64,000 nt of DNA, taken from positions 11,472,001 through 11,536,000 of the forward strand of contig OZ249436.1 in NCBI GenBank assembly GCA_965235115.1, given 5' to 3'. The position numbers were made by a program, and so were the translations under genes. Positions 12,362 to 49,800 of the stretch are shown here, piece after piece (the stretch's first letter is position 1; the number at the start of each line of letters is the position of its first letter). The notes under the pieces were generated by a model, which saw only the letters and a program-made list of their open reading frames with translations, was not told the DNA's origin and did no database searches. This DNA is from Laetmonice hystrix. Its lineage: Eukaryota.

Positions 12362-12454
12362 GAAAACGTCACACTACAGCAACACCTTGAATGGCAATAC
12401 ATCTTTATTACATGATATGGGTTGGGGACGTGTTTGTACCATGTCGTTCTGGCA

Positions 12455-23258: not shown

Positions 23259-23440
23259 GGGGCCGCGGTAGCTCAGTGGTCTTAACCTCTGGCTGATGAT
23301 CAAAACACCCCTGACCTCATCCCCTCCTTACTTAAATGAAGAATAGCTTGTTGTAACTTCTGCAGTTTCTCCAGGTATTCACCACCACTAAACCCGACCC
23401 CCTCCCCCCCAACTAAACCGAACTGTTGCTGACGTGAACC
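23259..23440 (+). mobile_element. Decayed tRNA-derived SINE
   Basis: Head ggggccgcggtagctcagtggt (Pol III A-box-like), followed by tttctccaggtattccaccaccactaaac, which resembles invertebrate SINE bodies. No intact cloverleaf or B-box. Confidence 0.4.
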
Positions 23441-26400
23441 CCCTCCCTGTTATCAGAGTTCGAACTCGGCGTGAAGAATTGACCTTTGTCCGGGAAGTGT
23501 CAGACAGGCGGAGTGAGGCGGGGGGGGGAGGACCCTTTATCTGTCCTCCATCCATGATTAATGACTTGGTTTGTTTGGGAGGACAGCAGGGGTTCCATGT
23601 AATGGTTTCAAGGGAATTGTCTTTACCCTTGCTCGGTCACACGGAAGACTTACCGTTGTCTTATCTACCCCTTCCACCATTGATTTATGTTTCCATATAC
23701 TACCTGCCAGTTCTGTCATAACACACAGCCGTACATCGGCTGTAAATTTGTCGAGATAAGAAGGAACCTCGAAGTATTGATATTATTTTCTTGGCTATGC
23801 GAGGGGCGGGAGGGTGTCACCCTCCCTCACCAAAGGCTCTTCAGCCCACCTTTAGGCCTGGTTCACATTGCTTTAAGCAGGTAGATTCTCGTCAGACCGT
23901 GACCAAAATAACATCTGCCATAATGGGTCCCACAGAGATCATGATGACATTATCTGATTCAGACAGTAAGGCATTGTCTTTTTTAAAAGTCTGCTCTGAC
24001 CCTTTTATAGGAATACAATCATAATGTGGGTCACCGTATTCAGATGGTTATTTGTGTCAGGTTAATAAAGCACATATATGTCTGAATATACCGTTAGGAG
24101 TGGGAATCCTCTTAACATTTGATTGATTTGCTTGTCAAACGTGGACAGACCGCGCGTTGTTCGTGCCTGTACTGTACGTGCACTGTGGAGCACCGCTACA
24201 GGCTGCAGCATTTAATTGTCTTGAAACTACCAGTCATTGTGGAGCTCCGAGCACTACAAACTGGCAGGAGGCCATGAACTTCACACCCTGACCCAGTCAT
24301 GGTCAAGACGAGCAGGCCCCAGGATATGTGTACACGGGTAACATGCATCAGTAGCCGCAGTTTTACACCTCCTGTTCAACGCTTCCTCTAACCAAGGGTC
24401 TATGAAGCAATCAGGAAGTAACATTTTATCCCTAGAATAGCAGAGGAACTCTCTCTCTCTCTCTCTCATGGAAGGTAGGCCTAACCATGCAAGGCGGCAC
24501 TGCAATGGGCAAGGACTATTGTAGATATCTCTAGATCACAGCATACTTAATACCAACGCTACACATATTGTTTTACCCGTGTATGACCATTCCGGAACAT
24601 GTCCAATCAATGTCATTTTATTCGATTTTTTCTTTGAGACTTGGAATTAATTCTGGTGGTTTTAATGAGTAGAAAAGATTGGGATACCTTAAACGCTATT
24701 CAGGGATCATTCATGCGTACGATAGCAGTTTGGCCTCTCTGGATAGCAACCTTCACTGCTGGATGGAGGCCAAGACACTTGTGAGCGTATACTGTGGGTA
24801 CCTTACTGAACAATGTTCCTTCAGGCACGTTTTGTGTCGTGGTACCTGAACCGTTCCAACGAGTGGGGCCTCAAAATGTCTGAATGCCAAAATGTGATAG
24901 GCCTATGTGAGGCTTCTCTTGCCTGCAACTCGCCTCATCTAGCCTTTGCATGTGCTTTCACCATGCAGCATAGAAGGTCAACAACCCTGGCCACAAAGGA
25001 ACTAAATTTGCAAGTCTAGGGCAAGGCTAACTTCACTAAGACCATGATCAAACCACCTATTGATTTTTCAAATGAAAGATTAAAAAAGGCGTCGAAAAAA
25101 TTGAAAATAACAAGTTTTTTTTCTGTTAGACCTAGATACATGCAATGCATTACCCATTTTAAACCAAGTAATTTTCACCTTACATTGAATCTATATATAT
25201 ATCTGATAGCTGATAAAGAATGCGACACATGACAAACAATGGTTCCAGAGGCCTCCTCAGGCAGCTTGTTAGATCAAACAACTGAGACATGCGATCGAAC
25301 AACAGGACCCTATGGGACTGAGCAAACCCGGAGCTATAGGCCTAACTCACGCTGAAAACCTTCATCTCATATTGGGTTATACAAACTAAAACATATCCTT
25401 GAGCTACACGTGTGAATTCTTAAGCTCTTTTTTATGGCTATATGATTTACAAAAAGATTCCGTGGCCATATCGTTGACCTACATTACAGTGTATATGTTG
25501 GTTTTTAAATATCGTATGACACTTCAGTACTTTATTCTACGTTACCGATGAAACAAGCCAAACTTCGACCGAGATATGGTCTTACACAACTTACACACAC
25601 CTGGACTGTGTGCACAGGTATTTCTAGTCATACCTTTAAATATATGTTCACTATATATATGCTCGCATCAACATTGGACAATAAACCCGCATTTACGCAC
25701 GAAGATTTTTAATACTCCATTTCCTTTCGTCTAGACGCAAGGTTTGCTCTAGAGGATTGGAGTACCTCAACGCTACATCTCACCTTCACCGATGTACTTT
25801 TACTAATGTATTGCCGTTTCCAAGGTTACATTTTTGATTATATTGTTTTCATGACCCCTAGTTTCACTGAATTTCTTTCCTTTTCTAAAGCAGTCAACTT
25901 AAAAGGTTACTTAGTTCAAAATTCTCTTTCCTTCCTGAAACAGATCTCTGACAAGAGTCCCTTCAATTAAAAAGGGTTACACCACAATTTGAATTACATG
26001 TAAATTCAATTTCAGTGCATACGCAATGGTAATTATTCTGACCTTCTCTTGACCCCTACATACAAGGTTACCTTAAGATTCCTAAATGCGTCTAAATATC
26101 GCGTCGTGATTCCAAGTACTGTCTGTGATTTACGACCGCCAGTGCTAAAGTCTCGGCCGTTTGCATGTTGTTCACACAATGCCAACAGTGTCACTTTTGT
26201 TGAAATGTAAAGTACCTGACGAAGGGTGGTGTGAATGGTGGGCAGTGCGGACACCGAGGGTATGTAAAAGTACCCCGGAATGTGCCATTGTTAATTACCC
26301 TACAGCCCGTTCAGTGTGGGTGCCTGCTGTGGAAAGGGAGATGATGAGGGGTTAATTAAGCAATCAGCACTCTTCTTTCACCTGTTCCTGAGAAACAAAA

Positions 26401-27021
26401 CACGTAACCAGGTACAACAGGTACGACCTTTCCCACATCCATTGTTTTCCACCGAGGAAGGCTAGTTGTACAGTATAAAGTTTGTTTTTTTAATGTCTAG
26501 ACTCTTATCTTCTTTTTCAACAGATTAACCTGAATTCACAGAATCGCCTAACGGAATTTGATATAACAACAACTTTGAATACTCTCTCGTCGGAACTGAT
26601 TCTTTCAAAAAGTTCCTTTTTAAATGCACTTGATATTTACACTTACTGATACCAATAAGTCGACGACTTCGTGTTAGAATTATTATACTGTACATCGTCA
26701 ACTGCAAGAATTCCCGTAAATCAGTATCCCTAACAAGTATACTGGAATATAATTACCGTTTTCATAACTTAGATACTTCTAAACCAATTTTGGGCCTGTC
26801 TCCGACTACATTTTAGACCCATTTACAAACACCGCGTGTGTCCGTGTCATTTACAGACATTCTAATCATGTTTGAACATGTTTTCCACAATCTTAACTTT
26901 CTTAGCTTTGAAGTTGAACCGCACCTGTTCCTTCGTGACATGTTGAACAACAACGATGTCGCCAACTTCTTGTTGATGTTTAGCCCAACAAATTAATTAT
27001 ACCAGCTCTACCCGAGCCCCG

Positions 27022-27432
27022 TCGTCACAGGTTCCCCAATCAACCCCCACACCATAACACCAACCAATCCTAGCAAGCCGTTCACCCGTGACCAATCACG
27101 ACCCTCGTCACAGGTTCCCCAATCAACCCCTACACCATAACACCAACCAATCCTAGCAAGCCGTTCACCTGTGACCAATCAGGACCCTCGTCACAGGTTC
27201 CCCAATCAACCCCTACACCATAACACCAACCAATCCTAGCAAGCCGTTCACCTGTGACCAATCAGGACCCTCGTCACAGGTTCCCCAATCAACCCCTACA
27301 CCATAACACCAACCAATCCTAGCAAGCCGTTCACCCGTGACTAATCAGAACCCTCGTCACAGGTTCCCCAATCAAACCCTACACCATAACACCAACCAAT
27401 CCTAGCAAGCCGTTCACCCATGACCAATCAAG
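27022..27432. repeat. Minisatellite, ~5 copies of an 83-bp unit
   Basis: cgtcacaggttccccaatc recurs at 27023, 27106, 27189, 27272 and 27355. Confidence 0.95.
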
Positions 27433-28329
27433 GCATCTGGAATTTCATGCCACATAACCATATATGTATAAACTGATTATAATAAAATTGCATGTACAAA
27501 ACAGAGAAACTCCTGGGGCTGCCTGGACCCTGGTAATAATGTAGGATTGGAGGTCCTACTAACACGCCCTTATCGGGACCTCATAAACCAATACAGTTAG
27601 AAACGTTATCTCGTCTACCTTTTTATGAGAGAAGCAGTCAGCCTTCAGGATACTAATAAAGGGGTAAAACAAAAACATGTTTCAACACGAACAAATATAT
27701 ACCCTTGTCGTTTATCTGTGACACTTGGCAGTACTTAATGCTACCTCAGTATCGTGTTTCATAATTATCCCATCCCCTATCCAGGGGATGGGATCTAGAA
27801 ATTGTGTGGTTTCGGTTTCCGTATTATTATTTGCGTAGTAGTAGTAGTAGTAGTAAACAAATTTGTTAACAAGGGGTCATAACTCGGTCATTTTTCAAGA
27901 TATCTAAGTCAAACTTGGTGGGCATATTGCCAGTCACAAACTCTGATCTGCCAATGAGTCATGACGTCACATGACGTAACGTCAGGACGTCATGACGTCA
28001 TTCGTGTTGTGACTATTTGGACGGTTTTCAAAGTCAATATGGATACTTTCCAGGAACTGATGACACTGTTAGAATTGGGCAAGGACCTAATTCATATTTT
28101 GCAAATATTTTGACCTTTGACCTTTGACATGTCATAAAACTAGGTCAAAAGTCAGAAAATGCTTAAATCCTTACTTCTTCCTCAATTTTCATTAAAATTT
28201 CATGAAATTGCACAGGGATGGTGTCTAACGAGAGTTTCAAAGGAATCAGGTTTGCTATAATTGATTTGACCTATATTCGCTGAGTCACGTGACTTCAAAG
28301 TTTTGAACAGTGGTCAATTTGGCTATTTA

Positions 28330-31055
28330 TGGCTATAACTCATAAACGGTGCCAGAAAGGGCCATAGCTACTATTGAACACGAATAGGAAGTCATGCATG
28401 CTCTTTCAGTTGACCGCAAGTTTGATGACGTAGCGTGACGTATGACGTCATAATGACGTCATCAATATTTTCAAAGACCTATAACTCCTAAACGGTGGGA
28501 GATAAAGCCATGGTTACTATTGAACACGAATAGGAAGTCATGCATGCTCTTTCATTTGACGCCAAGTTTGATGGCGTAGCGTGACGTATGACGTCATAAT
28601 GACGTCATCAGTATTTTCTAGGGTCTATAAGTCCTAAACGGTGGGAGATAGAGCCATGCTTACTATTGAACACAAATAGGAAGTCATGGATGCTCTTTCA
28701 ATTGAGCCCAAGTTTATTGACGTATCGTGACGTATGACGTCATAATGACGTCATTGGTAGCTTCTATGGCCTATACCTCAAGAGCAGTGCAAGATAGAAC
28801 CATAGTTACTATTGAACACGAATAGGAAGTCATGGATGCTCTTTCAATTGAGGCCAAGTTTGATGACGTAGCGTGACGTATGACGTCATAATGAGTCATC
28901 AATATTTTCAAAGACCTATAACTCCTAAACGGTGGGAGATAAAGCCATGGTTACTATTGAGCATGAATAGGAAGTCATACATGCTCTTTCAATTGACACC
29001 AACATTTATTAGGTAGCGTGACGTATGACATCATAATGACGTCATTGGTATCTTTTATGGGCTATAAGTCGAAAACAGTGCAAGATAGGACCATAGTTAC
29101 TATTGAACACGTATAGGAAGTCATACATGCTCTTTCAATTGTAGCCAAGTTTGATGACGCAGCGTGACGTATGACGTCATAATGACATCATCAATATTTT
29201 CTAGGAACTATAACTCTTAAACGGTGGGAGATAAAGCCATAGTTACTATTGAACATGAATAGGAAGTCATACATGCTCTTTCAATTGACACCAACATTTA
29301 TTAGGTAGCGTGACGTATGACATCATAATGACGTCATTGGTATCTTTTATGGGCTATAAGTCGAAAACAGTGCAAGATAGGACCATAGTTACTATTGAAC
29401 ACGTATAGGAAGTCATACATGCTCTTTCAATTGTAGCCAAGTTTGATGACGCAGCGTGACGTATGACGTCATAATGACATCATCAATATTTTCTAGGGAC
29501 TATAACTCTTAAACGGTGGGAGATAAAGCCATAGTTACTATTGAACACGAATAGGAAGTCATACATGCTCTTTCAGTTGACGCCAAGTTTGATGACGTAG
29601 CGTGACCTATGACGTCACAATGACGTCATCAGTATTTTCTAGGGTCTATAAGTCCTAAACGGTGGGAGATAGAGCCATGGTTACTATTGAACACAAATAG
29701 GAAGTCATGGATGCTCTTTCACCTGAGGCCAAGTGTAATGACGTAGCATGACGTTGACGTCATAGTGACGTCATCAATATTTTCTAAGGCCTATAACTCC
29801 TAAACGGTGGGAGATAAAACTATGGTTACTATTGGACATGAATAGAAAGTCATACATGCTTTTTCAATTGACACCAACATTTATAGGATAGTGTGACGTA
29901 TGACGTCATAATGACGTCATTGGTATCTTCTATCGCCTATAACTCAAGAACGGTGCAAGATAGGACCATAGTTACTATTGAACACAAATAGGAAGTCATG
30001 CCCTTTTATTTGAAGCCAAGTTTGATGACGTAGTGTGACGTATGACGTCATAATTACGTCATCAATATTTTCTAAGGCCTGTAACTCCTAAACAATGGGA
30101 GATAAAACCATGGTTACTATTGGACATGAATAGAAAGTCATACATGCTTTTTCAATTGACACCAACATTGATTAGGTAGCGTGACGTATGACGTCATAAT
30201 GACGTCATTGGTATCTTCTATGGCCTATAAGTCGAAAACAGTGCAAGATAGGACCATAGTTACTATTGAACACGTATAGGAAGTCATACATGCTCTTTCA
30301 ATTGAAGCCAAGTTTGATGACGTAGCGTGACGTATGACGTCATAATGACGTCATCAATATTTTCTAGGGGCTATAACTCTTAAACGGTGTGAGGTAAAGC
30401 CAGAGCTACTATTGAACACGAATAGGAAGTCATACATGCTCTTTCAACTCAGGCCAAGTTTAATGACGTAGCATGACGTATAACGTCATAATGACGTCAT
30501 CAATGTTTTCCAAGGCCTATAACTCCTAAACGGTGGGAGATAAAGCCATGGTTACTATTGAACATGAATAGGAAGTCATACATGCTCTTTCAATTGACGC
30601 CAACATTTATTAGGTAGCGTGACGTATGATGTCATAATGACGTCATTACTATCTTCTATGGCCTATAAGTCGAAAACAGTGCAAGATAGGACCATAGTTA
30701 CTATTGAACACGAATAGGAAGTCCTACATGCTCTTTCAATTGAGGCCAAGTTTGATGACGTAGCGTGACGTATGACGTCATAATGACGTCATCAGTATTT
30801 TCTAGGGCCTATAACTCTTAAACGGTGGGAGATAAAGCCACAGTTACTATTGAGCACGAATAGGAAGTCATGCATGCTCTTTCAACTGAGGCCAAGTTTA
30901 ATGACGTAGCATGACGTATGACGTCATAGTGGCGTTATCTATATTTTCTAAGGCCTATAACTCCTAAACGGTGGGAGATAAAGCCATGGTTACTACTGAA
31001 CATAAATAGGAAATCATACATGTTCTTTCAATTGACACCAACATTTATAAACGTC
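28330..31055 (+). repeat. ~146-bp tandem array 1 (about 18-19 units) inside the HINE
   Basis: Marker ctattgaac recurs at 28371, 28517, 28663, 28809, 28954 and onward. The unit contains aaacggtgggagata, ataggaagtcat and tgacgtatgacgtcataatgacgtcat. Confidence 0.95.
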
Positions 31056-31639
31056 ATAATGACCTTACTAAGTCATAGGGACATGCCCCCCAAGGGATGG
31101 GATCCATCGTGGTTTTCACCACGACAGGTCTAGCTTGCGTAGTAGTAGTAGTAAACAATTTGTTAACAGGGTCATTTAACAGGGCCATAACTCGGTCATT
31201 TTTCAAGATATCTAAGTCAAACTTGGTGGGTATGTTCACAGTCACCAACTCTGATGTGACAATGAGTCATGACATCACATGACGTAACGTCATCACGTCA
31301 TGAAGTTATTCGTGTTGTGAATATTAGGACGGTTTTCAAGGTCATTATGGATACTCTTGAGGAACTCATGACACTGACAAAATTGGGCAAGGACCTAATT
31401 CATATTTTGCAAAAATTTTGACCTTTGACCTTTGACATGTCTGAAATCTAGGTCAAAGGTCAGAAAATACTTAAAACCTATCTTCTTCCTCAATTTTCAT
31501 TAAAATTTTATGAAATTGCATAGGGATGGTCTCTAACGAGAGCTCCAAAGGAATCCGCTTCGCTACCATTGATTTGACCTATATTCGCGGAGTCACGTGA
31601 CTTAAAAATTTTGAACAGTGGTCAATTTGGCTATCTATT

Positions 31640-33200
31640 GCTATAACTCATAAACGGTGCCAGAAATGGCCATAGTTACTATTGAACACGAATAGGAAGT
31701 CATGCATGCTCTTTCAGTTGACGCCAAGTTTGATGACGTAGCGTGACGTATGACGTCATAATGACGTCATCAGTATTTTCTAGGGTCTATAACTCCTAAA
31801 CGGTGGGAGATAGAGCCATGGTTACTATTGAACACAAATAGGAAGTCATGGATGCTCTTTCAATTGAGCCCAAGTTTATTGACGTATCGTGACGTATGAC
31901 GTCATAATGACGTCATTGGTATCTTCTATGGCCTATAACTCAAGAGCAGTGCAAGATAGGACCATAGTTACTATTAAACACGAATAGGAAGTCATGCATG
32001 CTCTTTCAGTTGACGCCAAGTTTCATGACGTAGCGTGACGTATGACGTCATAATGACGTCATCAATGTTTTCCAAGACCTATAACTCCTAAATGGTGGGA
32101 GATAAAGCCATGGTTACTATTGAACACGAATAGGAAGTCATGCATGCTCTTTCAGTTGACGCCAAGTTTCATGACGTAGCGTGACGTATGACGTCATAAT
32201 GACGTCATCAATGTTTTCCAAGACCTATAACTCCTAAATGGTGGGAGATAAAGCCATGGTTACTATTGAACATGAATAGGAAGTCATACATGCTCTTTCA
32301 ATTGATACCAATATTGATTAGGTAGCGTGACATATGACGTCATAATGATGTCATTGGTATCTTCTATGGCCTATAACTTAAGAATGGTGGAAGATAGGAC
32401 CATAGTTACTATTGAACACGTATAGGAAGTCATAGATGGTCTTTCACTGGACACCAAGATTCATGACGTAGCATGACGTATGACGTCATAATGACGTTAT
32501 TGCCATGTCATAGGCCCTATAGCTTGTAAACAGTGGGATATGGAGCCATGGTTACTATTGAACATGAATAGGAAGTCATACATGCTCTTTCGATTGACAT
32601 CAACATTTATCAGGTTGCGTGACGTATCGTATGACGTCATAATGACATAATTGGTATTTCTATGGCCTATAACTCGAGAACGGTGCAAGATAGGACCATA
32701 GTTACTAGTGAGCACAAATAGGAAGTCATATATGCCCTTTCAATCGAAGTCAAGTTTGATGACCTAGTGTGACGTATGACGTCATAATTACGTCGTCAAT
32801 ATTTTCTAAGGCCTATGACTCCTAAACGGTCGGAGATAGAGCCATAGTTACTATTGAACATGAATAGGAAGTCATAGATGCTCTTTTAATTGACACCAAC
32901 ATTTATAACATAGCGTGACATATGACGTCATAATGACGTCATTGGTGTCTTCTATGGCCTATAATTCAAGAACAGTGCAAGGTAGAACCATAATTACTGT
33001 TGAACACAAAAAGGAAGTCATATGCCATTTTATTCAAAGCCGAGTTTGATGACGCAGTGTGACGTATGACGTAATGATGACATCATCAATATTTTCTAAG
33101 GCCTTTAACTCCTAACTGGTGGGAGATAAAACCATGGTTACTATTGAACACGAATAGGAAGTCATACATGCTCCATCAATTGACACCAACATTTATAAAC
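31640..33200 (+). repeat. ~146-bp tandem array 2 (about 10-11 units) inside the HINE
   Basis: Same unit as array 1, preceded by a diverged second copy of the ~480-bp leader. Confidence 0.95.
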
Positions 33201-34984
33201 GTGATAATGACCTTACTAAGTCATAGGGACATGTCCCCCAAGGGATGGGATCCATCGTGGTTTTATCCACGACAGGTCTAGTTCTATATGAAAGGACCTC
33301 AATTAGCTGTGTAATCTGTAAGCAGCGACTAAATGACTGTTGTCTGGCGCGGCGTGCTGTAGTTTGTAATTAGTTGAAGATGCTCACCTCAATCGGTGGC
33401 CACTTAAATGTGCCACTGTTTTTACCTATTATCAGTTACTGTCTAATCCTCGGGGATTCTTCCGACTTCAGGGCTTTGACGTGGCTAAATGATCAAAGTA
33501 CCGTCGTCAAGGATGAATGCCCATCAGTTGTTCTTACCATCTGATGTCAGGAGAGATTTACTACCTTCAGACTATAACCAACCACAAATCGTGGTTCCTA
33601 CCTTCTTAAAGAACGACACCCCCCCCCCCCCCAAAAAAAATTATTTCTTTATCGAAATAGATATCTTAAATTGCAGAATTTTGAAGACCCCGTAACCTGT
33701 AACTCCGTTCCTTCTTATTGGCGTTCTCGGCTGGAGATCTTAATGAATCCTACCACCAGTGTGACGACCAGCTAGGCCAATCACACCTTCACAATCACTA
33801 TAACTGTGTGCAGATGTATTCAAACATAATGTAGTCAGTAAGTGAATAGACCTATTTGTTAGTAAACTATCTCTTGTGCTAACTGAATATTTTACCCCCA
33901 ACTACTTCAGTATGAACGTGACATGACACATATTTATCTGTTCATGAGGCAAGTTTTGCACACTATTTCACAAGTACTCTTAGCACGAAGCTGCGGATTG
34001 CTATAATATCCCTTCTTATGAGAATAGGGCTTGAAATCTACACTCAAAACATAATTTTCTCCGTGGCCCCCATTCTTTACTCCTACCAAACCCAATAGAA
34101 AATATGTATGTGCTACGCTTTACTTTTCTCAACTCTTATCTCTCTGACCATGGGTAAGTCTTTCTTCATACACAACTCTTTGTCATAACTCATTAACTGT
34201 ACCTTTTAGAAAAAAAAAATCAGAAATAATCGGAAATTCCGTTCTTAGGGGCCTACATACATTCCAGAGTTATCGTTTCATCATACAAAACTCCACAAAG
34301 GTAAAGTCGTATTTTACTGCCGTACGTATCAGAAGTGATAATCAAACCGGTTCCTTTCGCAGTCTCTAATCTCTGTGTCAGATTCTATTGCCAGCAGAGT
34401 CACAACCATGTCAGATCCTGAATTTGCCCTGCAACCACAGGGAATCTAGTTACAATCTTCCCCATTCATCAGCGTCTTCTCTCTGCTCGTCACACACCTA
34501 CAGTTACCCTGGTGAGGGCAATTACCAACCCCACTGCCAATCTACAAGGATGTCACCATGTGAAAAACGCGAGTGAGCTCCAATACAAGGAAGTGTCAAT
34601 TTCCATGTTTAATTTCCCTGCCTTATACTGATATATGTACTGTACAGACGCAACGGGGCACGGACAAGTGCCATGTTAAGTCTATAATGTAGTGTGGAGC
34701 TCCCCCGACTGGCTGACATACAGTCACCTCATAGGTAGTCCCCAGGTTACTTGAAAAGTTTAACAAGGCACACGTTCGGCGGCCTATACAATGGGGACTG
34801 TTAACATTGGCAGGCCCCAGTCATTAGATTCGGGAGAGTGGCCGGGCACTCCTGCAAGGTCGTCCCATTGAGACTCGCTCACAGACATTACAACCTTGCC
34901 AAGTTTACAACATGCAACATGATGCATTGCTTTTTCGCAAAGAAGTTCTGACTTTATTTGTCATACGGTCAACAATGACACAAC

Positions 34985-35478
34985 TATGAAACCCCTAAGG
35001 GTAACCAGAAAGGACAGAGGTGGGGAAAAATTACGTTATTTCATTCCAACGAAATGATTTGGTTCCGACGAAATAATCTATTTCGTTCTCAAGAAATGAT
35101 TTCGTGGGAAAGAAATAGCATATTTCATTTCTTAGAAATGATTTTGAGGGAGTAAAATATGTTATTTCGTCCCCCAAAAAATCCTTTTGGAGGAAAATCA
35201 TTTCGAGAGAATGAAATCATTCAATTTCATTCCCACAAAATGATTTCGAGGGAATGAAATAACATTTCATTACCTCAAAATCATTTTGAGGGAATGAATT
35301 CTATACTTCAAAATGATTTCAAGGGAACGAAATATATAATTTCGTTCCCTTGAAATGATAAAATAACATATTTCTTCCCCATGAAATCATTTCGAGGCAA
35401 CGAATTATCTTATTTCGTTCTCACGAAATGATTTTGAGATCATCTTTTTTACACTCATGTCCCCACAGGGGCTCCGTA
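34985..35478. mobile_element. Older foldback-type element with internal (atttcg/acgaaat)-rich subrepeats
   Basis: Degenerate TIRs tatgaaacccct ... aggggctccgta. The interior is made of short direct and inverted gaaatgatttcg-type units. Same architecture as 4442-5589. Confidence 0.65.
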
Positions 35479-35655
35479 CACACCTGTTTCAGCATCTCAT
35501 TCTGCTGATCAAATATGTCATCATTATGAGTTAGGGATCTAAGAAAGTCTTGAGAAAGCTACACATAATCATTATACACATATCAATTCCCTAAAGCCTT
35601 TCTTACTACCGCTATACTGACTCACGTACACCGCTTTGGGGCAAACTTAACTCAC

Positions 35656-35815
35656 CTTTTTATTGACTTCCAAAAGTTAGATGTCAGAAGAAAAGGCAAA
35701 CTGGATTAACATCCTTGGTAAAAGGACATACTGAGTCATGTGGGATCAACCTGGACCGGTTGAAATAGGTTAGGCGGACTGGGAGCTTACCTGCAAAAAT
35801 AAAATAAACAGAAAT
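35656..35815 (-). other. Candidate recursive splice site (3'ss fused to 5'ss) plus 135-nt RS-exon
   Basis: Minus strand reads atttctgtttattttatttttgcag|GTAAGC at 35791/35790. A second donor AAG|gtgagt follows 135 nt downstream (35656/35655). Same strand as the cadherin gene. Confidence 0.55.
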
Positions 35816-38800
35816 TACATTAATACTACTGATGGAACAGAGGTGCTAAACGACTACCTTTTAACAATAACGAAAATATGAAAAAGCAGACCCGATTGGT
35901 TATTTGGTGAGGCCGTAACAATCTATCCTTCTAACCCTAACTTAAGCACACCATTGGAATCCACCCCATTGTGAGGGTATAACTGTAGTCGCGGTACCCC
36001 TCTATACCCGTGTGTACCCTTGCGTGTTGGAGCGGACGGTGTACACGTGGGAATGGGTCAAGGTAATACTCTGGTAAACTCCAACACTAGCAATCAGTCG
36101 TAACCCCACCCTCGTGTTGCTATCAGTTTAAGTTACCCTCTAATACTACCACGCTATTTGACGGACCTTCAAACAGAACGAATCAATATCATCAACATTT
36201 TCTTACAGCTTTAGCTAGTCATTGTTACACTTTCCATGCCCTGGGTCTGGTTATAGCTAGTCATTGCTACACTTTCCATGCCCTGGGTCTGGTCCCCATT
36301 TATCACCTGTGATAGCTGAATCACCCCGGCCCCTATTCTCCACAAATCTACCCGTTTACATACTAGGTCACCCAATCGACCCCACACACAATGGAGTCTT
36401 TGAATACCCCTACATGTCCTGTGACGTTCTCAAGTCGCACTATTATCCAAGAACTTTTATGTTGTACTTAGCCCTGGGAATACATTGTATATAGTTCCTG
36501 ATAAACTGTTCTTTCCTGGAGCACTAAACATTTTGCATGAATTCACGTAGATGAACGTGTATCTCTGTCTGAAAAGACACCAAAATGACAAACAAATAAA
36601 ACACCTAAGCTGTTGGTATTAACTATGAACATTGCGGCTGGAAGATCATTTGATTTGACACTTTTATTATACAACAGGTGTCGTAATTCTGGGACGAGAC
36701 ATGCCAATAGTTATCAGATACCTGGTGAGTCGGGGAAAATTCCAGTTTAGTCCCTCAACGTGCGGATCCTTCCAGCTAGTTTACAACATGAATGGCCGAC
36801 GGCAGTAAACGTTATGAAAAGGGAAGCCTAACAAAAGGTAATCAGTAAGAACGCTGCCCATGAAATAACGCCCAGGATTACATTATACCCCAGCGTTACC
36901 ATCTGCCATACAAATACCAGCTAATCCAAGACGCATATCAACACGCCCCCTCCAACAAAAACAGCACGCCACACCCCCACAGCAGGGTATATTGAAAAGA
37001 AGGCATGCAAATATTGTACGGCCTGCCCCTTGCCGGGTAGGAGGCTGCTTACTCGGAGCAGGCACAGTAGCCCATCAAAGCCGGGAAGAATGTTGAATCT
37101 CGTCCAACCTGACAATCAGAGACTATTTGTGTGTGACCCACAAGACCAGCCCGGGTCCAGGAAGAGGGATCACACCACCTACTTCTGTACATAGGCAGCG
37201 TGTCTGGAAATGGTCAGGTGTGTGTGGGAATGTTTGACCGAGGGTCCCAGTACGAGTACCTGCTGACACCTTAAACACCACAACAAGACGCTACCCGCGA
37301 TCTTACGGTAAAAATCCAACACCGACTCTGACCAGGGATTCTGGTTAAACAATCTTTGTGACAGATCTACTTCAGATAGGATAAGCAGCTTATAAACCAC
37401 ATTATATATCGTAAGGAAACCATTTGGTACATTATTTATCCCCCAAGTGTCTTCTCGGATATGTTCACATATCTCTGTTGCTGTGAAAGAAAACGTGAAC
37501 TAGCATCCAAAAGTTCTCTCTGACAATGGCATGAGGTAATGATGCTTGACCCTCGGGATATAATCCGTCCCTGTCGGATGAGTACATGATATTAAAGGCA
37601 ACTGCATGCATGAATAATTCGCTAAACTTAATTTCAGTCACACTTACCATCTTCCATGAAGTTCATGAGTGTTTCCATAAGAATCGTATACTAAGGGATT
37701 TCTCATTAGGGAAGATGTCTAAGAAATGTACCGTTATATAACAAAATTAACTGTAACATTTTCTTTGTGTTTTGGCTTCCAAACATTTTCCACAGCAAAT
37801 GGAAACAATGATACATGTGCTATACAGGCAATTAAAGTGTGTATACATAAGGCAATCCTTATGTCTTGTTTTATGTCATTGTGTAGAACTACAATGACAT
37901 ATGTCCTCCTTTGTTCGTTTCATAATAAAAACGATAACATCCAACATTTGGTCAAATAAACACGGAATCCTCAAAGATAAAAAAAGAAAGACATTCTCTT
38001 CAATAAAGTACTCCGTTCATATTTATCTGTCAATCTATTTCTCACCTTTTCCGCCCTCCTTGCCAGACCGACATTTCCATCAAACAACATGACAGTCCCC
38101 ACACTCGTTTACCGGTGAAAGCGTGCTTTTGGTGGCAACTTTAACGTCACCTTGGGGTGAATGTATGCTTATTTTGTAAATCGTGTGACTAGTTTTAGTG
38201 GGAATGCGGAATACACAACGTACATCATTCAAATGCAGAAACATTCCGCATTCTGCGGAAGGGTTGTCAGGTATGCCGCCAGTGTAAGGTCAATGAATAC
38301 AATGCCCCCGGCAATAAAACACCTCAGTATATTTCATTATCCTAATGAACTTCAACCATCCTAGCCCTGATAGACTCGACGCAGTTAGGTCATGGAGTTT
38401 TGCAGGAAAGTAGATTATTTTATACTGATTTGTTCAGAAGTAAGAGTCAAAGTCTACTTACTCTATACAGGTTATTAACGCTCAATCGGATTGTTAGTGA
38501 TGGTAGTTCCCACAGGTAAACTCCATGGTGTAAGTAATATAGGTACTAATCCGATGTCGATTTCTACTCGTAAACGTGTTCTGTGCTAAACACATTATTT
38601 CGTTCAATCAATGAATAACGAATTCCTCGCCATTGTGTCTCCGTAACAACAGGAAATACATTGAACCTTTGATTTCAATCAACTGTACAAAATACAATCG
38701 TCGGAACTTGTGATAATGGTCTACTGTTTAATTAAAACTTCAAACAAAGCCTTGCTCGCTGTGGTTTGTCCGGTATTTGCTACAAATTTCCCTTTTCATA

Positions 38801-40699
38801 TAAACTGAGCATACTGCATTATCCGTTTGAAAGATAATTACGGTACATGTCTTTGTGCATAGAATTCAACGAAAAGTCAATAGTGATACTGTTTTCATTG
38901 ACTCTTTTTCTTTCGCATAATGTCAGTGAATGAAGCAGAGCCAGGTAGAGCTTTCCCCACCATGTCACTCCCTTACCGACAAACAGGATTCATTAATTGA
39001 CTGCCCTGCAGACTAACTCTGGTTTATTGAGCAGATGTTACATATTTCACCTCTCGGTCAGTATCCAACTACGTGATTTTCCCACCCTGAGGTATTCCAT
39101 GTTCCTCTGATCCCGGTAAATAACGATAGTTCTGAATCAACAAATACTGTATTGATCAGCATAACACCTAAATTGATCTGTTTTGGAAAGAAATGCAAGG
39201 CTGAAACATACATTACATGCAGGTGTTATACCCATGTTAACTTACGCAGGCTTGTACACACTGTCTGCCCGGTAACAGTGCATAATACCCTTGTAATCTC
39301 GAGCAGAGGGTATATTATCATCAATTTACCTCAGAGCGTGTGTAGGTACGCTATGTGCTGGCACAGAGCTCCTTGATTACTTCAATTTTCACAATTCCAT
39401 GAATGTGTAAACTCCAACTGTACTCCTTGAGTCCCAGGTGATTTCTGGCGTAAAGTTTAACACCTTCCTTGGCGCATTCCGTGTCCCTCAACAAACTTCC
39501 TCTCCTGTGCTACTCTCGAGGTATATGTTTCTACTTAATGACTTCAGTCCATTCACTGCCACCTCGTGTATATGCATATCCACGCTCAAATGCTGCACAT
39601 TTCACAAGACTTTAGCTGTGACTTCTTGCAATGCAGGATGTCTCACCTATCTTCCCCTGGTTCAACTGGCCCGCACTTTGAACCCACTCCTGACCCAGTG
39701 AAGCCAGGCCTGTCCGCCCTAGGCAAGTCCTCTTCCCCCAAGCAACCGGCATGGGTAGTTGCAATGACTCACTCTGATTATCACTGAAGTCCACAAACTT
39801 CTGCCCTCAGGCTTTTTGGACGTTTTTTGTTTTCAAATTTGAGATATTTAGGTCGTTTTCAGTTAGAATTCTTGACCTGCTTCCACTACGGCGGCAATGC
39901 CACTTAATTCTTGCCTCATTGTGGGGTGTGAATATAATTGCAGTGTAACTTGTGGGCTTGGGCTTAAAATACATCACTACATCGCTGAATATGTATTCAT
40001 GTGTTCAATGTAGTGAGACATTGCTTTTTTCATATTTCAATGTCTGGCTGCTTTGAATTCCACAATGAGGGAAGTCTACGGAAAAACTGCAAGCTAGCCG
40101 TTGCACCGTCACAGCCCTGAGGCTGAAAATACTGATGCACTGGCCCATTACATGCGCTTAACAAATTCCTTTAAATCTTAAAACTTTAATGTGCGCAGTG
40201 TGGCCATAGTGAGACCCCGGAGCAGTTTCCAATGGTTGAACTAGAGTCTTTCAGTATAATCTGTATGACCTTGGGCTCCAACAACTGTCGGTAAACAGAT
40301 GTGCCAGTCCTAAAAGTCTCATCGGTAATCCTAATAGATCACCATTCACCTACATCTGAAACCCGCCACGTATCACCTAATACAGGGCTGGCCAAACCGT
40401 ATAATGTGCCCTTTTAAAAGGATGAAAAGTGGTTTGATACTGGCACGATAATCAGATAATGTTATAGTTTTGTACACAAACTTCTGACTGGATCAGATTC
40501 ATACTTACATAAGTTAGACAGTACAATGGGTGGTCTTCACGGTCTAGATTCCTTCCGTTCTGTCGTTTATGTTATCTTTGCGCTGTGTATCAAAGAGTAT
40601 AGTATCCCCTCTGAGCAGGAAAACGAAGGTGTATCAATCGGTATCAGTTCTGTGATCTCCCTCCAAGAAAACATACAGGATAAACTTGACTCCCATCTG

Positions 40700-40800
40700 C
40701 CACTGTACATAAACAAATAAATGTGAAACATTGGGTAATAATACACCTTGTTTCACATCGCTGATAACTGAAAATAAAGACGTCGATATGCATGACCAAT
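40700..40800 (-). pseudogene. Decayed non-LTR retrotransposon reverse transcriptase fragment
   Basis: TSLFSVISDVKQGVLLPNVSHLFVYV resembles the LINE RT motif FxVxxGVxQGxVLSPxLFxxY. Confidence 0.4.
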
Positions 40801-43800
40801 TATCAGATTGGCTCCATGCAGCTGTACAGCCAATGGCTACGATCCCCAGGTAAGGGTTCAATAGTGATTGGGCTGCTACATCAGCATACATGTGTGCTGG
40901 CCAGTCAGGTGTTCCATTCCAGCACACCTGCGAGGGCTGAGCGTGATGTTTTCCCACCCGCTATCCCACCCCCAGCGGGCCCTGCTCCCATCACGGCCCT
41001 TCATGGCTCGACGCCAGCAGACGTCATGCAAACAACCAACTCCATTACTGCCATCCACTGTAGCATGTCAAATACCAATCTACAGCATCAGAGGCTGTAG
41101 CCATTTAGAACTTTCACCAGGTCATGTATGCCATATGGGGAGGCAGGGTGAGGGAGTACCAACTGGCGGCTAACAGAGGGAGAGTTCTGGGAGAGCTCGT
41201 TCTGCTTCAACACGCCAGACTCATCGGGAATTAAACTTTACTGGCCGAGTCGGTAAGAATTCTTCTGAAGAACTCACAACATTTTATTATAGTTTTGTCA
41301 GGGAAACTGGCGGTGCTAATTGAAATTGTCTTTTGTACAGACCCAAGGCTGCTATTGCATGGCAACTCTCAAAGTAAGATATTACCGTACGACTGACCAG
41401 TTCAAAACTTAACCATTATATAATACAAGCATGAAATCACAAAAACTGTATCTGTCCTTGTACGATCCTGCAATTAAAACCTTGGATTTTGCTGGAGGGA
41501 TTCACTGACGTAGAGGCTGCAAGTAACGTTACCTGTGTACCTGTGTATTATGTGCATATCTGAATACAAAATGTGGCTTACTACAGAATTGATTGATTCT
41601 TCATTTCATGTATCAAAACTGAATGCTCCACAGCATGGTGACATTAATTTGACACAGGACACTGCTAGAATTAGGGAAGAACCCATCTCATGATGAAGGT
41701 GATATTAAACCGAAATTATGTAGAGAATCAATATCACTAATATGGTGACACATGGGCCTCAACATCATAATTTGTTGTAGATTATTCAGGAAGTTAATTA
41801 AAATATTGCACATTAATTAAAAATCTGACATAAGTATCTTTACGTGTGTTTTTGTAAAGGTGAGTCATATTCAACATAAATATTTATAACCTACATTTAC
41901 TGTTACCAACACCTAAATTAGCATAAATTTGAATTAAAAGTTAAAACAGAAACCCCGATAAGGTACCGACAATACCAGTGGAAACACCATTTTTAATTTT
42001 TCACCTGCTGCTATTAAATCAAGACGCATTTTGGAAATAATGGATATGGAAATATAAATACAATGAAAATGTACTCCCGTCTTCCCCAGTGACTTTCTTT
42101 CGAATATTTTACGAATATGTCACAGTATTACGTTTGTACGCGGCCATAAAGACGAGTACGTGTATTGGCCCCTCGACAACTGAGGATGGGGACATTACTA
42201 AAGTGCACAGAAAAGTTTAATGTCCGATAAAAGTAGCGAATCTGTCGAGTCCAACATTGAACAACCCTACTCATCACATTATTAGGTGAAGATTCCCGCC
42301 GAGCCTGCATTCAAGGCAAGGCAGGTTAAACGCAATGTGTTTTGTGAAGATAAAATTTCTGTGACCATCCACTTGGGAATGCCGCTTGAACATCTTCCCT
42401 CAAACTTTCCTTCTGGGCTGTTGAGTTACCTGGATACTTCTCGAAATAGCTCGACGTACTAAATTTAAAAGGGAGACGACAATGAAGCCATGCATTGTAT
42501 TAAAATAGGACTGTTGCAGTGCGGAGTATTCAAACATCAGGGTCGCTAACAAAAGAAAACTTAGCCGCCCATGACCAGTGACCATTGTACTGACTGCTTG
42601 ACCTCACTAACCCGTGGGCAGGCCCCCCTGGTCGCGTGACCTTTGACACGTTAATCGTCTCCCCAGGTGGCCGAGACACCCAATCCCCTCCCCCGGGTCT
42701 TACATACTGCCGCCCCGGTGTCCTCTTTATCATTGCGTCATTCCGTCAAATATTACCGGCTTCTTGGTCAATATTACCAACAATCATTGTTCCCTATTTG
42801 CGCAAGCCTTTTAAAGTCTTGGATCTGTCAACTAATAAGGACCCATTTTTATCAAGAAACAAGTCAACTTCAAACATTCATCTGTCTGCCCAATGATTAT
42901 GTGCCTCGCAGCCCCCTCTCTTGAATTCTGCGGATCGTTCAACACAACTTCCCAACATCTTCTTTCTGCTTGAGCCAGCCAAGGGAAATTTGTTACATGA
43001 TTATCTTCATTCAAACACTACCCTCGAGATATTTCCTCAGAAGAAAAGATAGGCAATTTGGGGTGACATACTCAAGTGAGATCTGCGGCTGCCAGCATAA
43101 TTCACATTCCAGGATCCCGTGAAACAAAAAGACCTTTTCAAAAAGACCAACGCCGCCTTTCAGCTGGTGTATATAAATACGCCCACGACCAACCTCTTCT
43201 TTTATTTGCATTTCTAAGTTTTTCATTCCTAAGACATGAACAAAAAAGAGAGAATCGGTGGGCATCATTCAGGCTGACAGATAATGCCCGGGGGAATCTT
43301 TGTAGTACTGCACCGAGCATATAAAAAATCCCCGGTGAATACAATGTGATGGCCAAACGACACTGGGAACTGATGATATGGTATCCCAACATTACCGAGT
43401 CGTACCGCTGGTCACTGAGGTATGAGACGTTCAGAATGACTGACTGAATGTAACGGATCTCTCATAGATTACGTGGTAAGCCACCTTGGCTGCCAACATG
43501 AGAGGTACTTGATAGTATAAAGGTTTAATGGTTTCACATTCTTACCCGTTATGGGACTACCTGCGACTGGTCTTTTCTTAGGTCCTTGTGATTATTATCC
43601 TGAGCGTTAACTTACATATAAACTGGCTAGTAATGGTTTCATGAACCACGACCGCCCCCCCCCCCCAACCTCCTGTTTTACTGCCAGAATCGTTATAACC
43701 GCCCTTACAACACATGGCGTCGAACCTAACGGGACAGCTGTGTTGTGGTTATGGTCAAAGCATTAGTGCCAGTGCAAAACTTAGCTTATGTTAGTGACCA

Positions 43801-46800
43801 AAAAGAATTGTTTATCTTACATTTTAACCAATTATAAATACGATAAACATAATGAAAACATTTTCAATCCGTTGGAATCCCAAAAGCCCTTGACAACCTG
43901 CCAGTCCTTGCTGTGACCAATCCTCAATTACTATTGTCACATACTGGTATAAATATAAAAGTTAAGTCTTATCCCACAACATGACTTAACTCCATAAGTC
44001 GATTTTAACCCGGTTTATTATGTCTGGAAGGAGCCAGTTGACTGGGAGTGAGTGAAGTCTTTGTATAGTAACTGACCGAGTCTGGCTACCTAACCGTCCC
44101 ATCTAGATGAGACATTCCACACGCCCTGGAGATGTGCACAACATAATTCCTGCCCGGATTTTCCTAAAATCAAATCTATCCTCTGTTTGAATATTGTGTG
44201 GGATTTCAGTGTTTATAAGAGCAAGCGCTCAGTTCGTGCCGGCGGTTCTTTACTACACCATTCTGCAATGACCTTCCACCTCTGACCCCGCTGTCAGGCT
44301 GAAATGTCTGCTTGATGACGCAGGGTTAATGGTCGGCAACTGACCGTGACCAGCCGTGGCAAGTGTCGCTTATTCTTGTCACAACTACTTTTTATACGGT
44401 CAGTTGACTGGCAGCATTCCTTTTTACCTTGCAATTGGCATGTGGGAGTATAAGAATTCGTGAAACTTGAACAAGGAGAAAGAAAGATCCAAGCACGTTT
44501 TCTCTGCCGAAGAAAACATTTGTGCTATTGTCAAATAAACCGTATAAACCTCTGGTACACATCGAATATATGCGTGAGACCTATGTCCTTTGGAAACAAC
44601 GGCTTGCGGCAGCACCATAAAAAAAGTACCCATACTTTTTTTTACACTTAATGCATTATACCTTCAAGATATTTTTCTTGTGCATGGAGTTTATCTACGA
44701 GCAACTGTTGCCCATTTTTTACAAGAGACTGCATTACCAATATATTACCTCGCCCCCTCCCTCCCACAAAGTCTGGCCCCGTACACCTGCATCATTACCT
44801 GTCACGTGTACACCTGTAATTACATCACAACCAGTGTTCGTCTTATTGTTTCTGACTACAGGTGTATAGTGAAAACAGGTACCAGATCCCCTAACACTTG
44901 CACAAACCTACTTTTCTCAGCTATAATGTCTGCCCTGATGCTTTTTTTCTTCCAGTGACACAGAACGATAAACACTGAAAATGAAAAAGATCCAGGGCTC
45001 GAGCCCTTATACTGAATGCGTCGATTCAGCTTGGGAATGGCCCAGCTTGATTCAGAAGGGAAGTGGACGTGCCTCTGAATATACAATAAACAGATCTAGT
45101 TTATGCACAGAGTCAGTCAGTGTCTGTCTCCGTCCTTTGCTGACATAGCAGTGTCACCTTTGCTGGGCTGTGATCAAAACCTAGATGTTTGTTTTTTATG
45201 AAACCCTTCTTAACGCTTTCCTAGCTCACAAGTACATGTCTCGTATGGGCGTAGGTAAGGCACATGGATCCACGCAGAAGCCACTTGGCAGGCTTACAAA
45301 AGGAAACCGTCCCAGTAGATCCGGCCTGTTGACTCTGTGTTTGGGGCGACAGGTATCCTGATAGTGCCCATGGTGTAACTTTGGCAGGTGGGCATCACGG
45401 TTATTGTGATGTGCAAGAAATGAGGACAACGATAAAGGTGTCTGGCAGGTCATGCTGGGTAAATGTTAGGGTTAGTCCCTGCCTCTTTATCACATCCATC
45501 AGAAAGCCATTCTATCAACGCTTTGGCCGTACGTTGGTCTTTGGACCGGAATGAAGGCAGTGTCATTATTTTGTACTTCAGCATCAAAACAGCATCTTTG
45601 TACAACTTTGTCAGGAAAGAAGGCCAATAACAACTCTTGCATTCGTGTCCAAGAATTTAGGAAGGTCTTTGGAATGTCTCACGGAAGCAGTCAATATGGA
45701 TCGTGAGAAAGCACCATGAACTATTAATACTTTACAAGCGATTCTACAGAAAGAAAACCGCATGCCCTTGTCTCAAATTAAAAATTCTGGTTTTAATGTT
45801 TAGATAGCAATTCTATTTCCGTCACTTCCTATAAAAATCACGCTGCCAAAGCACCAGGGGTCCGTTACTAAGTGACACAATCGCCTCCATATGACTGAGG
45901 ATTTACGTGGGGATCCACCTTAGTGAAAAGATCCCTAGCACCTGGATATAGAAACAACTCTAAGTTTAGTTTTGTTCCCAAGTCTAATTCCTAAAGATCC
46001 AACTAAAACGTCGTTGTCTGGTTAACCATGAAGAAATCGTGGTTTCTATTGCAAGGGCTCACCTGAGGCTCTCACATTGTACTTAACTCACTATATTTTG
46101 GTCTTAAAACATTTTACACACTGGTCGGACAGATGTTCCATTTTCCTTCCATTGAAAGGTGTGTGATTGTTAGTTGTATGTGTGTTATGTGCTTGCCCAA
46201 CTCCGCATCTACGGATTACATGGCCACTACTATATCCTAGTAAACATCTCCAAGCAAAGTAATCACGCAAACGTTGAAAAAAAACATCTTTGGAGCTTTT
46301 TGTCAAAGCGTGTTGTCGTCACTTGTCTCAGTTTTGACACATGACCAGATTGCCTGTTCCTGCTACAATGACCTGCGCCTAAAACCCAAGGAACCCCCCC
46401 GCTCCTCTCCCTAACCCGGCCCCAGCACCAGCTTCACCGTACTCCCACTCGCCATTTTCATGAACCAGGTCAGGCATGGAAGGTGGAATGTATGATCATG
46501 ATAAATACCCTAGCACACTCCGCAGTCAAACACCCTGATACTGCCCTTGAAAAACATATCCAGACCCTAAAAAGATTATTACAAACTGCGTACAGGTGGG
46601 CGTATACCGTTATACTGTTATAGAGCACGAATCCTGCTTTAGTTGCCAGGTCAAATATTTCTCAATCTTGACCTGTGACGTACACTTGGTATAATATATT
46701 CGTGTGCAGCAACTGTGGCTGCCTGACACATAGTTTGGAACTAGTAACCGTAAAATGGTATTGGTCCATTGTACTCCCATGCATCACTTCATGACATAAT

Positions 46801-49800
46801 GGGTGTACGCTAAGCCACATTGCATGTTTAATCGGGCATGGCGACATGATAAATATGAACCATAACTTAAGGTTGATATAAACAGCAATACTGCCAATAG
46901 ATTCATGCATGTCATAGAGCAATCACTGCTAAGTTTTTTTTCGTATTCTCACGTAAACGTGTGAGAGAAGCAGTTTGAGTAAGAAGAAAGGCCCGAATGT
47001 TATAATTTTGCTTAGGTTTTCAAAATTGAAATCGTATATCTAAGCCTTATTGTGAGCTCCTTTCGTCAATTTCTGTCAGGAATAGAAACACACAATTTTT
47101 TCTAGAGTTGAAGAAACCATTTTGTCTGTGAGTGAAGTAGGCCTAGATCTACACCTGACATAGGCCTACATTTCCATGAAAGATTTTTATCTAAATTGGA
47201 GTTTCCTTTACTTGAGAGAACCTGAAGGTAGAACGTAACTGCTACCAGGTATCGGCTTCCTTGTAAAAGTTCTGTCACTCAGATTCATAGGACAGATACA
47301 AGTATCATGAGATTCCGGAGGGCTCTTCCTTATTTGTTACAATAACCGGGGGGGGGGACTTCAGAACGAAACGAAGCTAATGTTCCTTACCTGCTTTCCA
47401 ATCGCCACAAGACGATTTTCATAGGATAAAATTTATTCGAGAAGCGCAATTTTTCTTCCATGTGTTCGATTCCCTACATCGACAATGGTTAGGTTACATA
47501 ATGTTTGCTCGACTGATATATTGAAGAATTCCGTTAGCTTCATTGTCTTCCATCGCATCCAGAAAATAACACATAAATCAAAGTGCACTACAACATATAG
47601 CCTACACCAGACGGTCATTGCTTATCTGACAGTGGAACAATGGCTTACGATTGGATAATGACGGTGGCTCCGGGCAGAGGTGATCGGTGGGTAACGTGAC
47701 CCCTGCTTCTTACCGAGCACCCTCGGGCAGGTTAGACCAGACAAGGTCTGGCACAGACAGATGGTCTGTTTGTGAAGCTACAGTCTACTTCCGTCTGATC
47801 TTATCTGTACGGCTTCTGGTCAAACCTAATCATTATAAGGTTTGGAAACTGCTGGGCGATATACAGTGGCAGTTCTCTACTAGGATTGTTGTAAATTAAG
47901 AACACCGACTAAGCTAGCAGAATATATGCTTCTACCTAGGACCGGCTGGGGCCCTGCTAGCATGACTCGGGTCAGCATTAATTATTTACCACTAACGAAC
48001 ACGGCCCAAACTCTGTAACTTCCAAATGGTCGTCCACTGAACCACCTCTAACTGACGGTGAATCGTCCCATTTACTTTAACTTGTACCGTAAAGTTCCCA
48101 GATCACATGCTACATGTGAGAAGTACTTCTGGAATATTTCAGCATATCACCATGGCCAGTCTAAGAAAAGACATTTAGCATATTTAAAATGTTAGCACGG
48201 GTGACGTCCCTCCAAGACGTCTTTAAAACAACTTATTATACTTAGACACGGTTATTTCAGAGCTTGGTTTGAAAGTCGTAAACCTTCTATGGATGCTGCT
48301 ATAGAAATCCCTAAAAAGTCTGACAGCGTGGTTGCGTTTGAAAACATTTCTCTTCTTTTTGCGGAAAATATTCATTAGGGTAATACTTCACGGAACTCTG
48401 ATCTACTATCCATAACTTCCCACGGTGAAATGCCCTTTCAGAAAAGAAAGAAGTAATCCCATAGTTTTCCATAGAATCTGCCATTTTGTAGAGGAAAATT
48501 TGAAGAGTGTAATGCGATTTGAATTTCCTGCTAAAATGGGATTCGGGATACAATCTTCAGAGTATACATTCTTGCTGTGGATTTAAAGTTTCTCAAAATG
48601 TCATTTTATGGAGTCATCAAAGGTTGAAACCGGCAGTCACACCTTTGCAAAATATCATATGGCATGGACTCCAGATCAATTTGCACGGATAAAAAGGGAA
48701 AATTCGAGTTCCAACATAGGTCAACATCAAATAGGTAGGCTTCAGAACGTCATGAGATGCGTCACATATGTAAAGTAAGAAGAGCATTTCCTTAATATTT
48801 TAATATATTCAGAGACTTTTGTTTGTCAAAGTTGTCCTATTACCAAGCAAGTAGTAATGAGTAGTGCTCTCTGAGTCAGCGGTATTCCCTATGACTAAAC
48901 ATTAGGCTGATTCACATGTTCTATTTATCATGTGATCCTAAAGTAAAAAAGACGCCATGTGAACTATGTCATCCTAAGAACCGAATCTGGACCACTTTTA
49001 CTTAGCAACTCCCATATTGGTTTTGCCTCAGTCACCCTCCACCTTGCACTCTGACCTTTTCCTACGTTCAGGAAGATCTGACAGGGACGTCTAGAGGACA
49101 GGGGTCAGCCTATGTTGAGGTGCCCTCTGTCAGGTTAACGGTAAATGGGGTAAGGATGTCAAACATCTCAGGTTCCTGTCTTCTTTACTCTGTCAGTAAA
49201 CACCAAAAGGGAAAGAACGAACACAACGTTTTTGCAAGATACCACTGGAGAGTGGCAAATAGGTAACTTTTCTTTCCACCATGTTTCTTGCAGTCTTCTT
49301 CTTGTTTAAAAGCAGGTAGTTGTACACAACAGACTCGGACAGGTGTTCCTTGTTGGTAATATTGATATTAGGTGGATATTTATTGGAGACTCAATGAAGC
49401 ATTACTCTGGGTAAATTATCCGTCATGAATGACCTCCATTTGAGTCAGACAACCTGAAATCAGGTCATGTTATGATATCAGCTAATATAAAATACGGCTT
49501 ACATGTCTTTATAACACGTTATTGACATCATGACAGACATATTTCGATTAGAACAAGCACCTGTCTGGTTGAGACCTTGGTAAGTCAGTGAGAGTAAAAA
49601 AGGGAGCTGTGACCAGGACATGTGAAGTTCATTCTGTGTACCTGCAGACAGAGAGCAAATATAGACATGGGTCTCTGGCAGCCGCTGGGTCTACGTCAGT
49701 GGCTGCCGGGCAAGCCGCTATGTCCTCAACTCCACTGTCCACGGCAAACACACCCCGACTTGGGTCCAGCAACAACCAAACACCAACGACCAGCTGCATG

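Follow-up and report, generated by a model that had tools for sequence, protein, structure and literature searches.

Is the very long putative first intron of a giant cadherin gene in Laetmonice hystrix removed in one step or in two? The question is raised by position 35790 of the window, the 64,000-nt stretch of genomic DNA analyzed here, where an acceptor AG on the minus strand (35792-35791) runs directly into GTAAGC, a donor that begins at 35790. A second donor, AAG/GTGAGT (the slash marks the splice junction), has its GT at 35655-35654 and closes a unit of 135 nt (35790..35656). The first-pass annotation had reported both the fusion and the second strong donor, and its coordinates are confirmed on the minus strand. 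Judging from the sequence, the inferred first intron of this gene is likely to contain a recursive splice site at 35790, accompanied by an RS-exon. The features discussed below are collected in Table 1.

Table 1. Features of the cadherin locus and its surroundings, in window coordinates.
Feature	Position	Strand	Remarks
COX6B1 gene, co-oriented, ending about 2 kb above putative exon 1	about 64500-65900	-	
Putative GC-rich non-coding exon 1	62037..62600 (upper end approximate)	-	inferred
Exon 1 donor CAG/GTAAGT, 5' end of the inferred intron	62031..62039	-	score 11.0
Inferred first intron of the cadherin gene, 54,563 nt	7474..62036	-	from skew, gene bounds and motifs
Branch-like motifs (-33 and -28 relative to the acceptor), T-rich tract and CAG acceptor	35791..35823	-	score 14.0
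Donor GTAAGC, predicted to be regenerated when exon 1 (...CAG) joins 35790	35785..35790	-	score 9.8
Putative RS-exon, 135 nt, non-coding, single-copy	35656..35790	-	stops in 3/3 frames
20-codon uORF within the RS-exon	35677..35739	-	translational effect inferred
RS-exon donor AAG/GTGAGT, putative exon-definition partner and competitor	35650..35658	-	score 11.9
Second, weaker acceptor/donor fusion cag/GTACGT at 8264, with a candidate donor at 8110 (154 nt downstream)	8111..8290	-	doubtful
Exon 2 of the giant cadherin gene, start codon at 7437, signal-peptide-like segment	7356..7473	-	

A first intron of about 55 kb, linking exon 1 (62037) to exon 2 (7473), is probable because four observations point to it: the strand skew, a unique GC-rich exon 1, the position at which COX6B1 ends, and the lack of convincing coding exons between 7.5 and 62 kb among the open reading frames of at least 100 aa examined. 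On the minus strand, G exceeds C in 25 of 27 2-kb bins from 8 to 62 kb, as against 5 of 18 above 68 kb, and each of the 13 bins between 36 and 62 kb has a positive skew, a pattern that suggests a transcript entering from higher coordinates. The 62-63 kb bin has a GC content of 0.54 and an observed/expected CpG ratio of 0.94, the putative exon 1 sequence is unique in the genome and closes with an almost perfect donor at 62036, and two poly(A) signals of COX6B1, at 64635 and 64527, bound the space available to it. Proteins of annelids, nemerteans, and molluscs are the nearest matches of the COX6B1 exon (83-90%, the best two being annelid), which makes the host a lophotrochozoan and a probable annelid; with 41 residues, the match is weak below the lophotrochozoan level. 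Within the inferred intron, 35790 lies at 48% of the length and leaves segments of 26,246 and 28,317 nt, so that the near-equal halves described in the first-pass annotation have the right sizes, given this intron.

Besides its signal-peptide exon, the cadherin gene has six further exons within the window; repeat exons follow by the dozen in the adjoining 60 kb, and the gene is still continuing at the far end of the 60 kb examined below the window. After a PCDH15-like early repeat come dozens of similar ones, in which the exon has a stereotyped length of 183-198 nt, and some of the repeat introns are missing, either lost or never gained. We rejected the label of PCDH15 orthologue, given that exon 8 matches PCDH15 weakly (E 9e-6) and that dozens of repeats run for at least 60 kb; the other named match, also weak, is a 'cadherin-23-like' protein of starfish (31%). 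Exon 3 returned nothing in Pfam, PDB, or Atlas searches, and a relative of it with 75% identity exists. A metagenome scan for an orthologous locus with the exon 3 alignment confirmed none of 324 candidates. Six exact 20-base metagenome matches were dismissed as chance, since similarity stops at 20-21 bases and the matches lie in long open frames.

The unit at 35790 displays a branch, a tract, and a YAG acceptor fused directly to a consensus donor, with the closest upstream AG 37 nt away from the acceptor. The branch-like motif and polypyrimidine tract of the earlier description are thus present, except that the first letter of the tract was given wrongly (it is g, not t). Three ATGs fall within the putative RS-exon, in which a 7-codon uORF (35729-35706) overlaps the longer one. 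The surroundings (35500-35950) have a single match in the genome and repeats are confined to about 35010-35490; a transposon- or repeat-derived pseudo-site, for which multi-copy surroundings would be expected, was therefore discarded. No Rfam family for a structured non-coding RNA matched the window at gathering score. Three DNA-like sequencing runs from one sample, inspected over 33300-43300, display normal, even depth and allelic differences at the locus; they contain no joint at 35790 or 35656, which, the runs being DNA-like, is uninformative on splicing.

Motifs of this kind could also come to lie side by side by chance, without any role in splicing. By a crude criterion (YAG/GTRAG with at least 15/20 pyrimidines), 35790 is the sole site on either strand, one of nine YAG/GTRAG on the minus strand and none of five on the plus strand qualifying. 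Because 7-17% of simulated 64-kb Markov strands (60 runs per order) contain such a site, the bare motif is unremarkable alone, and very many windows were scanned. We therefore built a scoring matrix from the gene's own splice sites. Cadherin motifs in the 60 kb below the window yielded 46 donors and 35 acceptors, from which three of each were removed by eye as not real and to which seven of each were added from the exons in the window; the final set of 50 donors and 39 acceptors comes from one repetitive gene, with sites picked by motif rather than by RNA.

On this scale, the acceptor at 35790 (14.0) exceeds the maximum of the 39 training acceptors (13.4) and ranks second among 3376 AG in the inferred intron, and the RS-exon donor (11.9) lies above all 50 training donors and ranks first among 3738 GT. 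The GTAAGC donor (9.8) falls at the 76th percentile of the 50 donors. The fused score of 23.8 is the highest of 271 sense AG/GT sites, in agreement with the earlier statement that this is the strongest such fusion on its strand, as against 16.9 for the best of 229 antisense sites. It was attained in none of 300 simulated introns, a null that covers only the choice of the best site within one intron. The motif at 35790 is real, beyond chance. Independently of the fusion, the top donor of the intron sits 135 nt downstream, the chance of so strong a donor within 40-250 nt being about 0.004. A chance juxtaposition of motifs with no splicing role is hence very unlikely, and the segment 35656..35790 is probably a real, selected-looking exon unit and a candidate RS-exon.

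A genuine exon at this position could still be an ordinary one: a non-coding 5' UTR exon of 135 nt, constitutive or cassette, whose donor-like start is accidental and whose rebuilt donor is never used. Its two outer splice sites rank first or second in strength within the intron, as for an exon isolated between long introns, its length is unexceptional and does not fall in the 35-80 nt mode that characterizes the genomic class described below, and its donor is at least as strong as the rebuilt one. Furthermore, one of 39 true exons of the cadherin gene opens with a donor-like GTGAGA (7.7), so donor-like starts do occur in ordinary exons. A start with so good a donor is, however, expected in just 0.08-0.23% of ordinary exons (0.35-1.1% at a laxer cut), and fused sites with cryptic exons form a class in this genome. 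We therefore regard an ordinary UTR exon as unlikely.

Another explanation holds that 35790 is only a donor, belonging either to an alternative first exon or to a 280-nt exon that starts at 36070 and has a T-rich 3' end, or that the unit is part of another minus-strand transcript and the cadherin gene starts lower. An acceptor scoring 9.4 is indeed located 280 nt upstream, and YAG/GTRAG sites are commoner on the minus strand than expected (nine against about 4.3) and may mark extra first exons. What such an arrangement leaves unexplained is the branch-tract-CAG combination, stronger than all true acceptors, together with the top donor 135 nt below; there is also no GC- or CpG-rich patch at 35-37 kb, and the uniformly positive skew from 36 to 62 kb argues against a start in this region. 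This family of explanations appears quite unlikely.

Under the recursive reading, the very strong acceptor and the downstream donor would allow the 135-nt unit to be recognized as an exon, and exon 1 would be spliced to 35790, removing 26.2 kb. The join is predicted to rebuild CAG/GTAAGC, which would then rival the RS-exon donor. Use of the rebuilt donor would remove the other 28.3 kb and leave no trace, and use of the RS-exon donor would extend the 5' UTR by the 135-nt unit and its two small uORFs; the exon 1 region already contains several ATGs. Which of the two would prevail depends on a close competition. The matrix places the RS-exon donor 2.1 bits (bootstrap 0.5-4.0) ahead of the regenerated one, and it is the higher of the two in 99% of bootstraps; their pairing energies with the end of U1 are tied at -10.7 and -11.0 kcal/mol, respectively. 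As the two donors are nearly equal, both outcomes probably occur. If splicing is recursive here, we lean slightly toward an RS-exon that is mostly skipped, and frequent inclusion has a little less than an even chance; since the exon donor is as strong or stronger, the unit could plausibly be included in part of the transcripts, as a 5' UTR exon with uORFs.

The donor balance bears directly on the subtype of the site. The always-skipped (zero-nucleotide) subtype is marked by a ratchet donor stronger than the RS-exon donor, an order of strengths that 35790 does not display. In flies (PMC8605326), a weaker ratchet donor usually leads to RS-exon inclusion. Weakening the Bx ratchet donor below the exon donor results in full inclusion, and hth, skipped despite its weaker ratchet donor, is described there as an exception. 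The 'zero-length exon' of the first-pass annotation is thus weakened by the 2.1-bit advantage of the RS-exon donor and the U1 tie, considered together with the usual outcome in flies (PMC8605326). The remainder of the recursive architecture that it proposed is supported, with an acceptor above ordinary acceptors fused to a donor, a downstream donor delimiting the putative RS-exon, and a location at the midpoint of an inferred first intron of more than 40 kb. The genome also holds a class of candidate sites elsewhere.

This class emerged from a survey of 627 Mb in 35 contigs, in which all pattern counts are lower bounds. The pattern Y10-N-YAG/GTAAGY occurs at no fewer than 50 sites, as against at least 24 for the reversed pattern, at least 43 for a shuffled-donor control (Y10-N-YAG/GAATGY), and at least 15 for RAG/GTAAGY; the shuffled control rules out the raw excess of at least 50 over at least 24 as proof. 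A T-tract followed by CAG/GTAAGT was found at least 34 times, compared with at least 3 for AAG/GTAAGT. T-tract CAG/GTAAGC, at 11 sites or more, is barely above its reversed control (at least 7), and two narrower, over-specific patterns gave at least two matches each. Among the first 30 fused sites, strong donors are clustered 38-64 nt downstream; the GC skew of their 3-kb flanks carried no orientation signal.

A test fixed before the held-out sites were scored (a donor of at least 8 at +35..80) was applied to the other 20 sites of the first pattern and to 30 sites of the second, whose other four were already in the first set. Such a donor is present at 10 of the 20 and 7 of the 30 sites, as against 84 of 2520 background windows (3.3%). 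With a repeat copy removed, 17 of 49 held-out sites are positive, a result robust over thresholds 6-10, and plain GTRAG at +35..80 accompanies 19 of the 49, compared with 178 of the 2520 background windows. Taken together, the downstream donor is present at 27 of 87 fused sites and at 1 of the 35 control sites (Fisher p 0.0003), where one repeat enters the 87 in triplicate, a single repeat family supplies 5 of the controls, and 17 of the 43 GAATGY matches were examined as controls. The 32 candidate exons have a median length of 53 nt and no frame preference (13/10/9); none of 32 exons of the cadherin gene, a narrow comparison with one repetitive gene, is 35-80 nt long. On this evidence from sequence patterns, it is quite likely that the genome holds a class of candidate recursive sites with short cryptic exons, the signature of fly RS-exons.

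The site at 35790 is an atypical member of this class, given its 135-nt exon, its GTAAGC ratchet donor, and the strength of the exon donor, which equals or exceeds that of the ratchet donor. A longer tail of donors at 81-160 nt is seen in 6 of 32 cases, as against 75 of 1440 in the background (p 0.006); against the controls, the corresponding comparison (12 of 87 vs 2 of 35) is not significant (p 0.17). No donor at 81-160 nt accompanies any of the 13 strong-acceptor GTAAGC sites, and 5 of 22 GTAAGC fusions have one at 35-80 nt. Among unrelated acceptor/GTAAGY fusions that are followed by a strong donor after 35-68 nt, the distance is exactly 48 nt in five. Three dispersed repeat families carry an acceptor/GTAAGY fusion, so mobile DNA can seed such motifs.

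The closest parallels lie in Drosophila. Fly ratchet points typically lie near the midpoint of first introns longer than 40 kb and have a very strong acceptor (PMC6110457), and fly cryptic RS-exons are about 50 nt long and generally out of frame (PMC8605326). The described examples, Ubx, kuz, Bx, and luna (10.1101/006163, PMC6110457, PMC8605326), share with 35790 the fused acceptor/donor, the unusual strength of the acceptor, and a downstream donor that delimits a non-coding exon near the midpoint of such an intron, and in Bx, the RS-exon lies in the 5' UTR, as the unit at 35790 would. In exon size, the L. hystrix class as a whole is fly-like (median 53 nt vs about 50 nt in Drosophila). The candidate unit at 35790 differs in its length of 135 nt and in having a GTAAGC ratchet donor that is not stronger than the exon donor (the latter likewise in hth), and its host is a probable annelid.

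Vertebrate RS sites such as those in CADM2 and LSAMP (PMC8797253, PMC5126111) resemble 35790 in their location in the first intron of a cell-adhesion gene, their AGGTAAG core, and their reliance on exon definition. In another known RS-exon system, the exon likewise begins with a donor and competition between donors sets the outcome; in mouse, a strong downstream donor accompanies intermediates that contain the RS-exon. Mouse recursive host genes exceed 294 kb, and the known sites number only about 20 (PMC8797253, PMC5126111), whereas the inferred intron here measures 55 kb and three narrow patterns yielded dozens of candidates. Unlike in the RS-exon system with donor competition, inclusion at 35790 would add uORFs to the 5' UTR and leave the protein unchanged.

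The first-pass annotation called recursive splicing little documented outside flies and vertebrates. This needs qualifying, as RP motifs are enriched 8.2-fold along the sense strand within large introns in sea urchin, and are also enriched in large introns of mosquito, bee, and beetle (Shepard 2009, PMC2773006), although the evidence in these lineages is computational only. In its accessible text, that study covers no lophotrochozoan species and does not look for an RS-exon donor downstream, both of which are present here; it compared sense with antisense strands. A literature search at title and abstract level, with most subscription papers outside its reach, found no report on recursive splicing in annelids, lophotrochozoans, or molluscs. 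The mechanism is thus already known, and what this locus probably adds is a new lineage and a candidate site.

Recursive splicing is backed by RNA proof in flies and vertebrates; for sea urchin and several insects, the support comes from motif statistics. That held-out sites of a probable annelid carry a sequence signal for short cryptic exons suggests an origin of the fly mechanism, exon size included, before insects. A more far-reaching proposal is a lophotrochozoan with genome-wide fly-type recursive splicing through RS-exons of about 50 nt, in which the cadherin unit acts as a regulated uORF switch with two balanced donors; in this combined form we consider it doubtful. If such exons were indeed used genome-wide, the mechanism would be at least as old as protostomes. 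The survey yields about 30 concrete candidate ratchet points; the site at 35790 is itself a good but atypical target for testing recursive splicing.

Elsewhere in the inferred intron, the fusion at 8264 has the second highest fused score (19.5, second of 271), a U1 pairing energy of just -7.9, and a long T/C-rich tract upstream, 790 nt above exon 2. The 8264/8110 unit may represent a weak recursive site or, alternatively, a further exon of the UTR. The top acceptor of the inferred intron (14.9) is at 51049 on the minus strand, without a strong donor within 300 nt downstream; a strong minus-strand donor at 51290 lies 241 nt upstream of it. The minus-strand YAG/GTRAG sites include 55562, 51290, 47390, 46062, 39646, and 17897, and some of these sites may end alternative first exons.

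Several repeats lie near the unit and further along the window. A degenerate, partly palindromic 20/40-bp AT-rich repeat with many dispersed genomic copies occupies 35010-35490, starting about 170 nt below the RS-exon donor, and recurs at 4460-5560. A 146-bp unit forms two arrays, of 18.6 and 10.6 copies, at 28333-33189, just below the candidate recursive site, and further arrays are found at 27022 (83-bp unit) and 12455 (75-bp unit).
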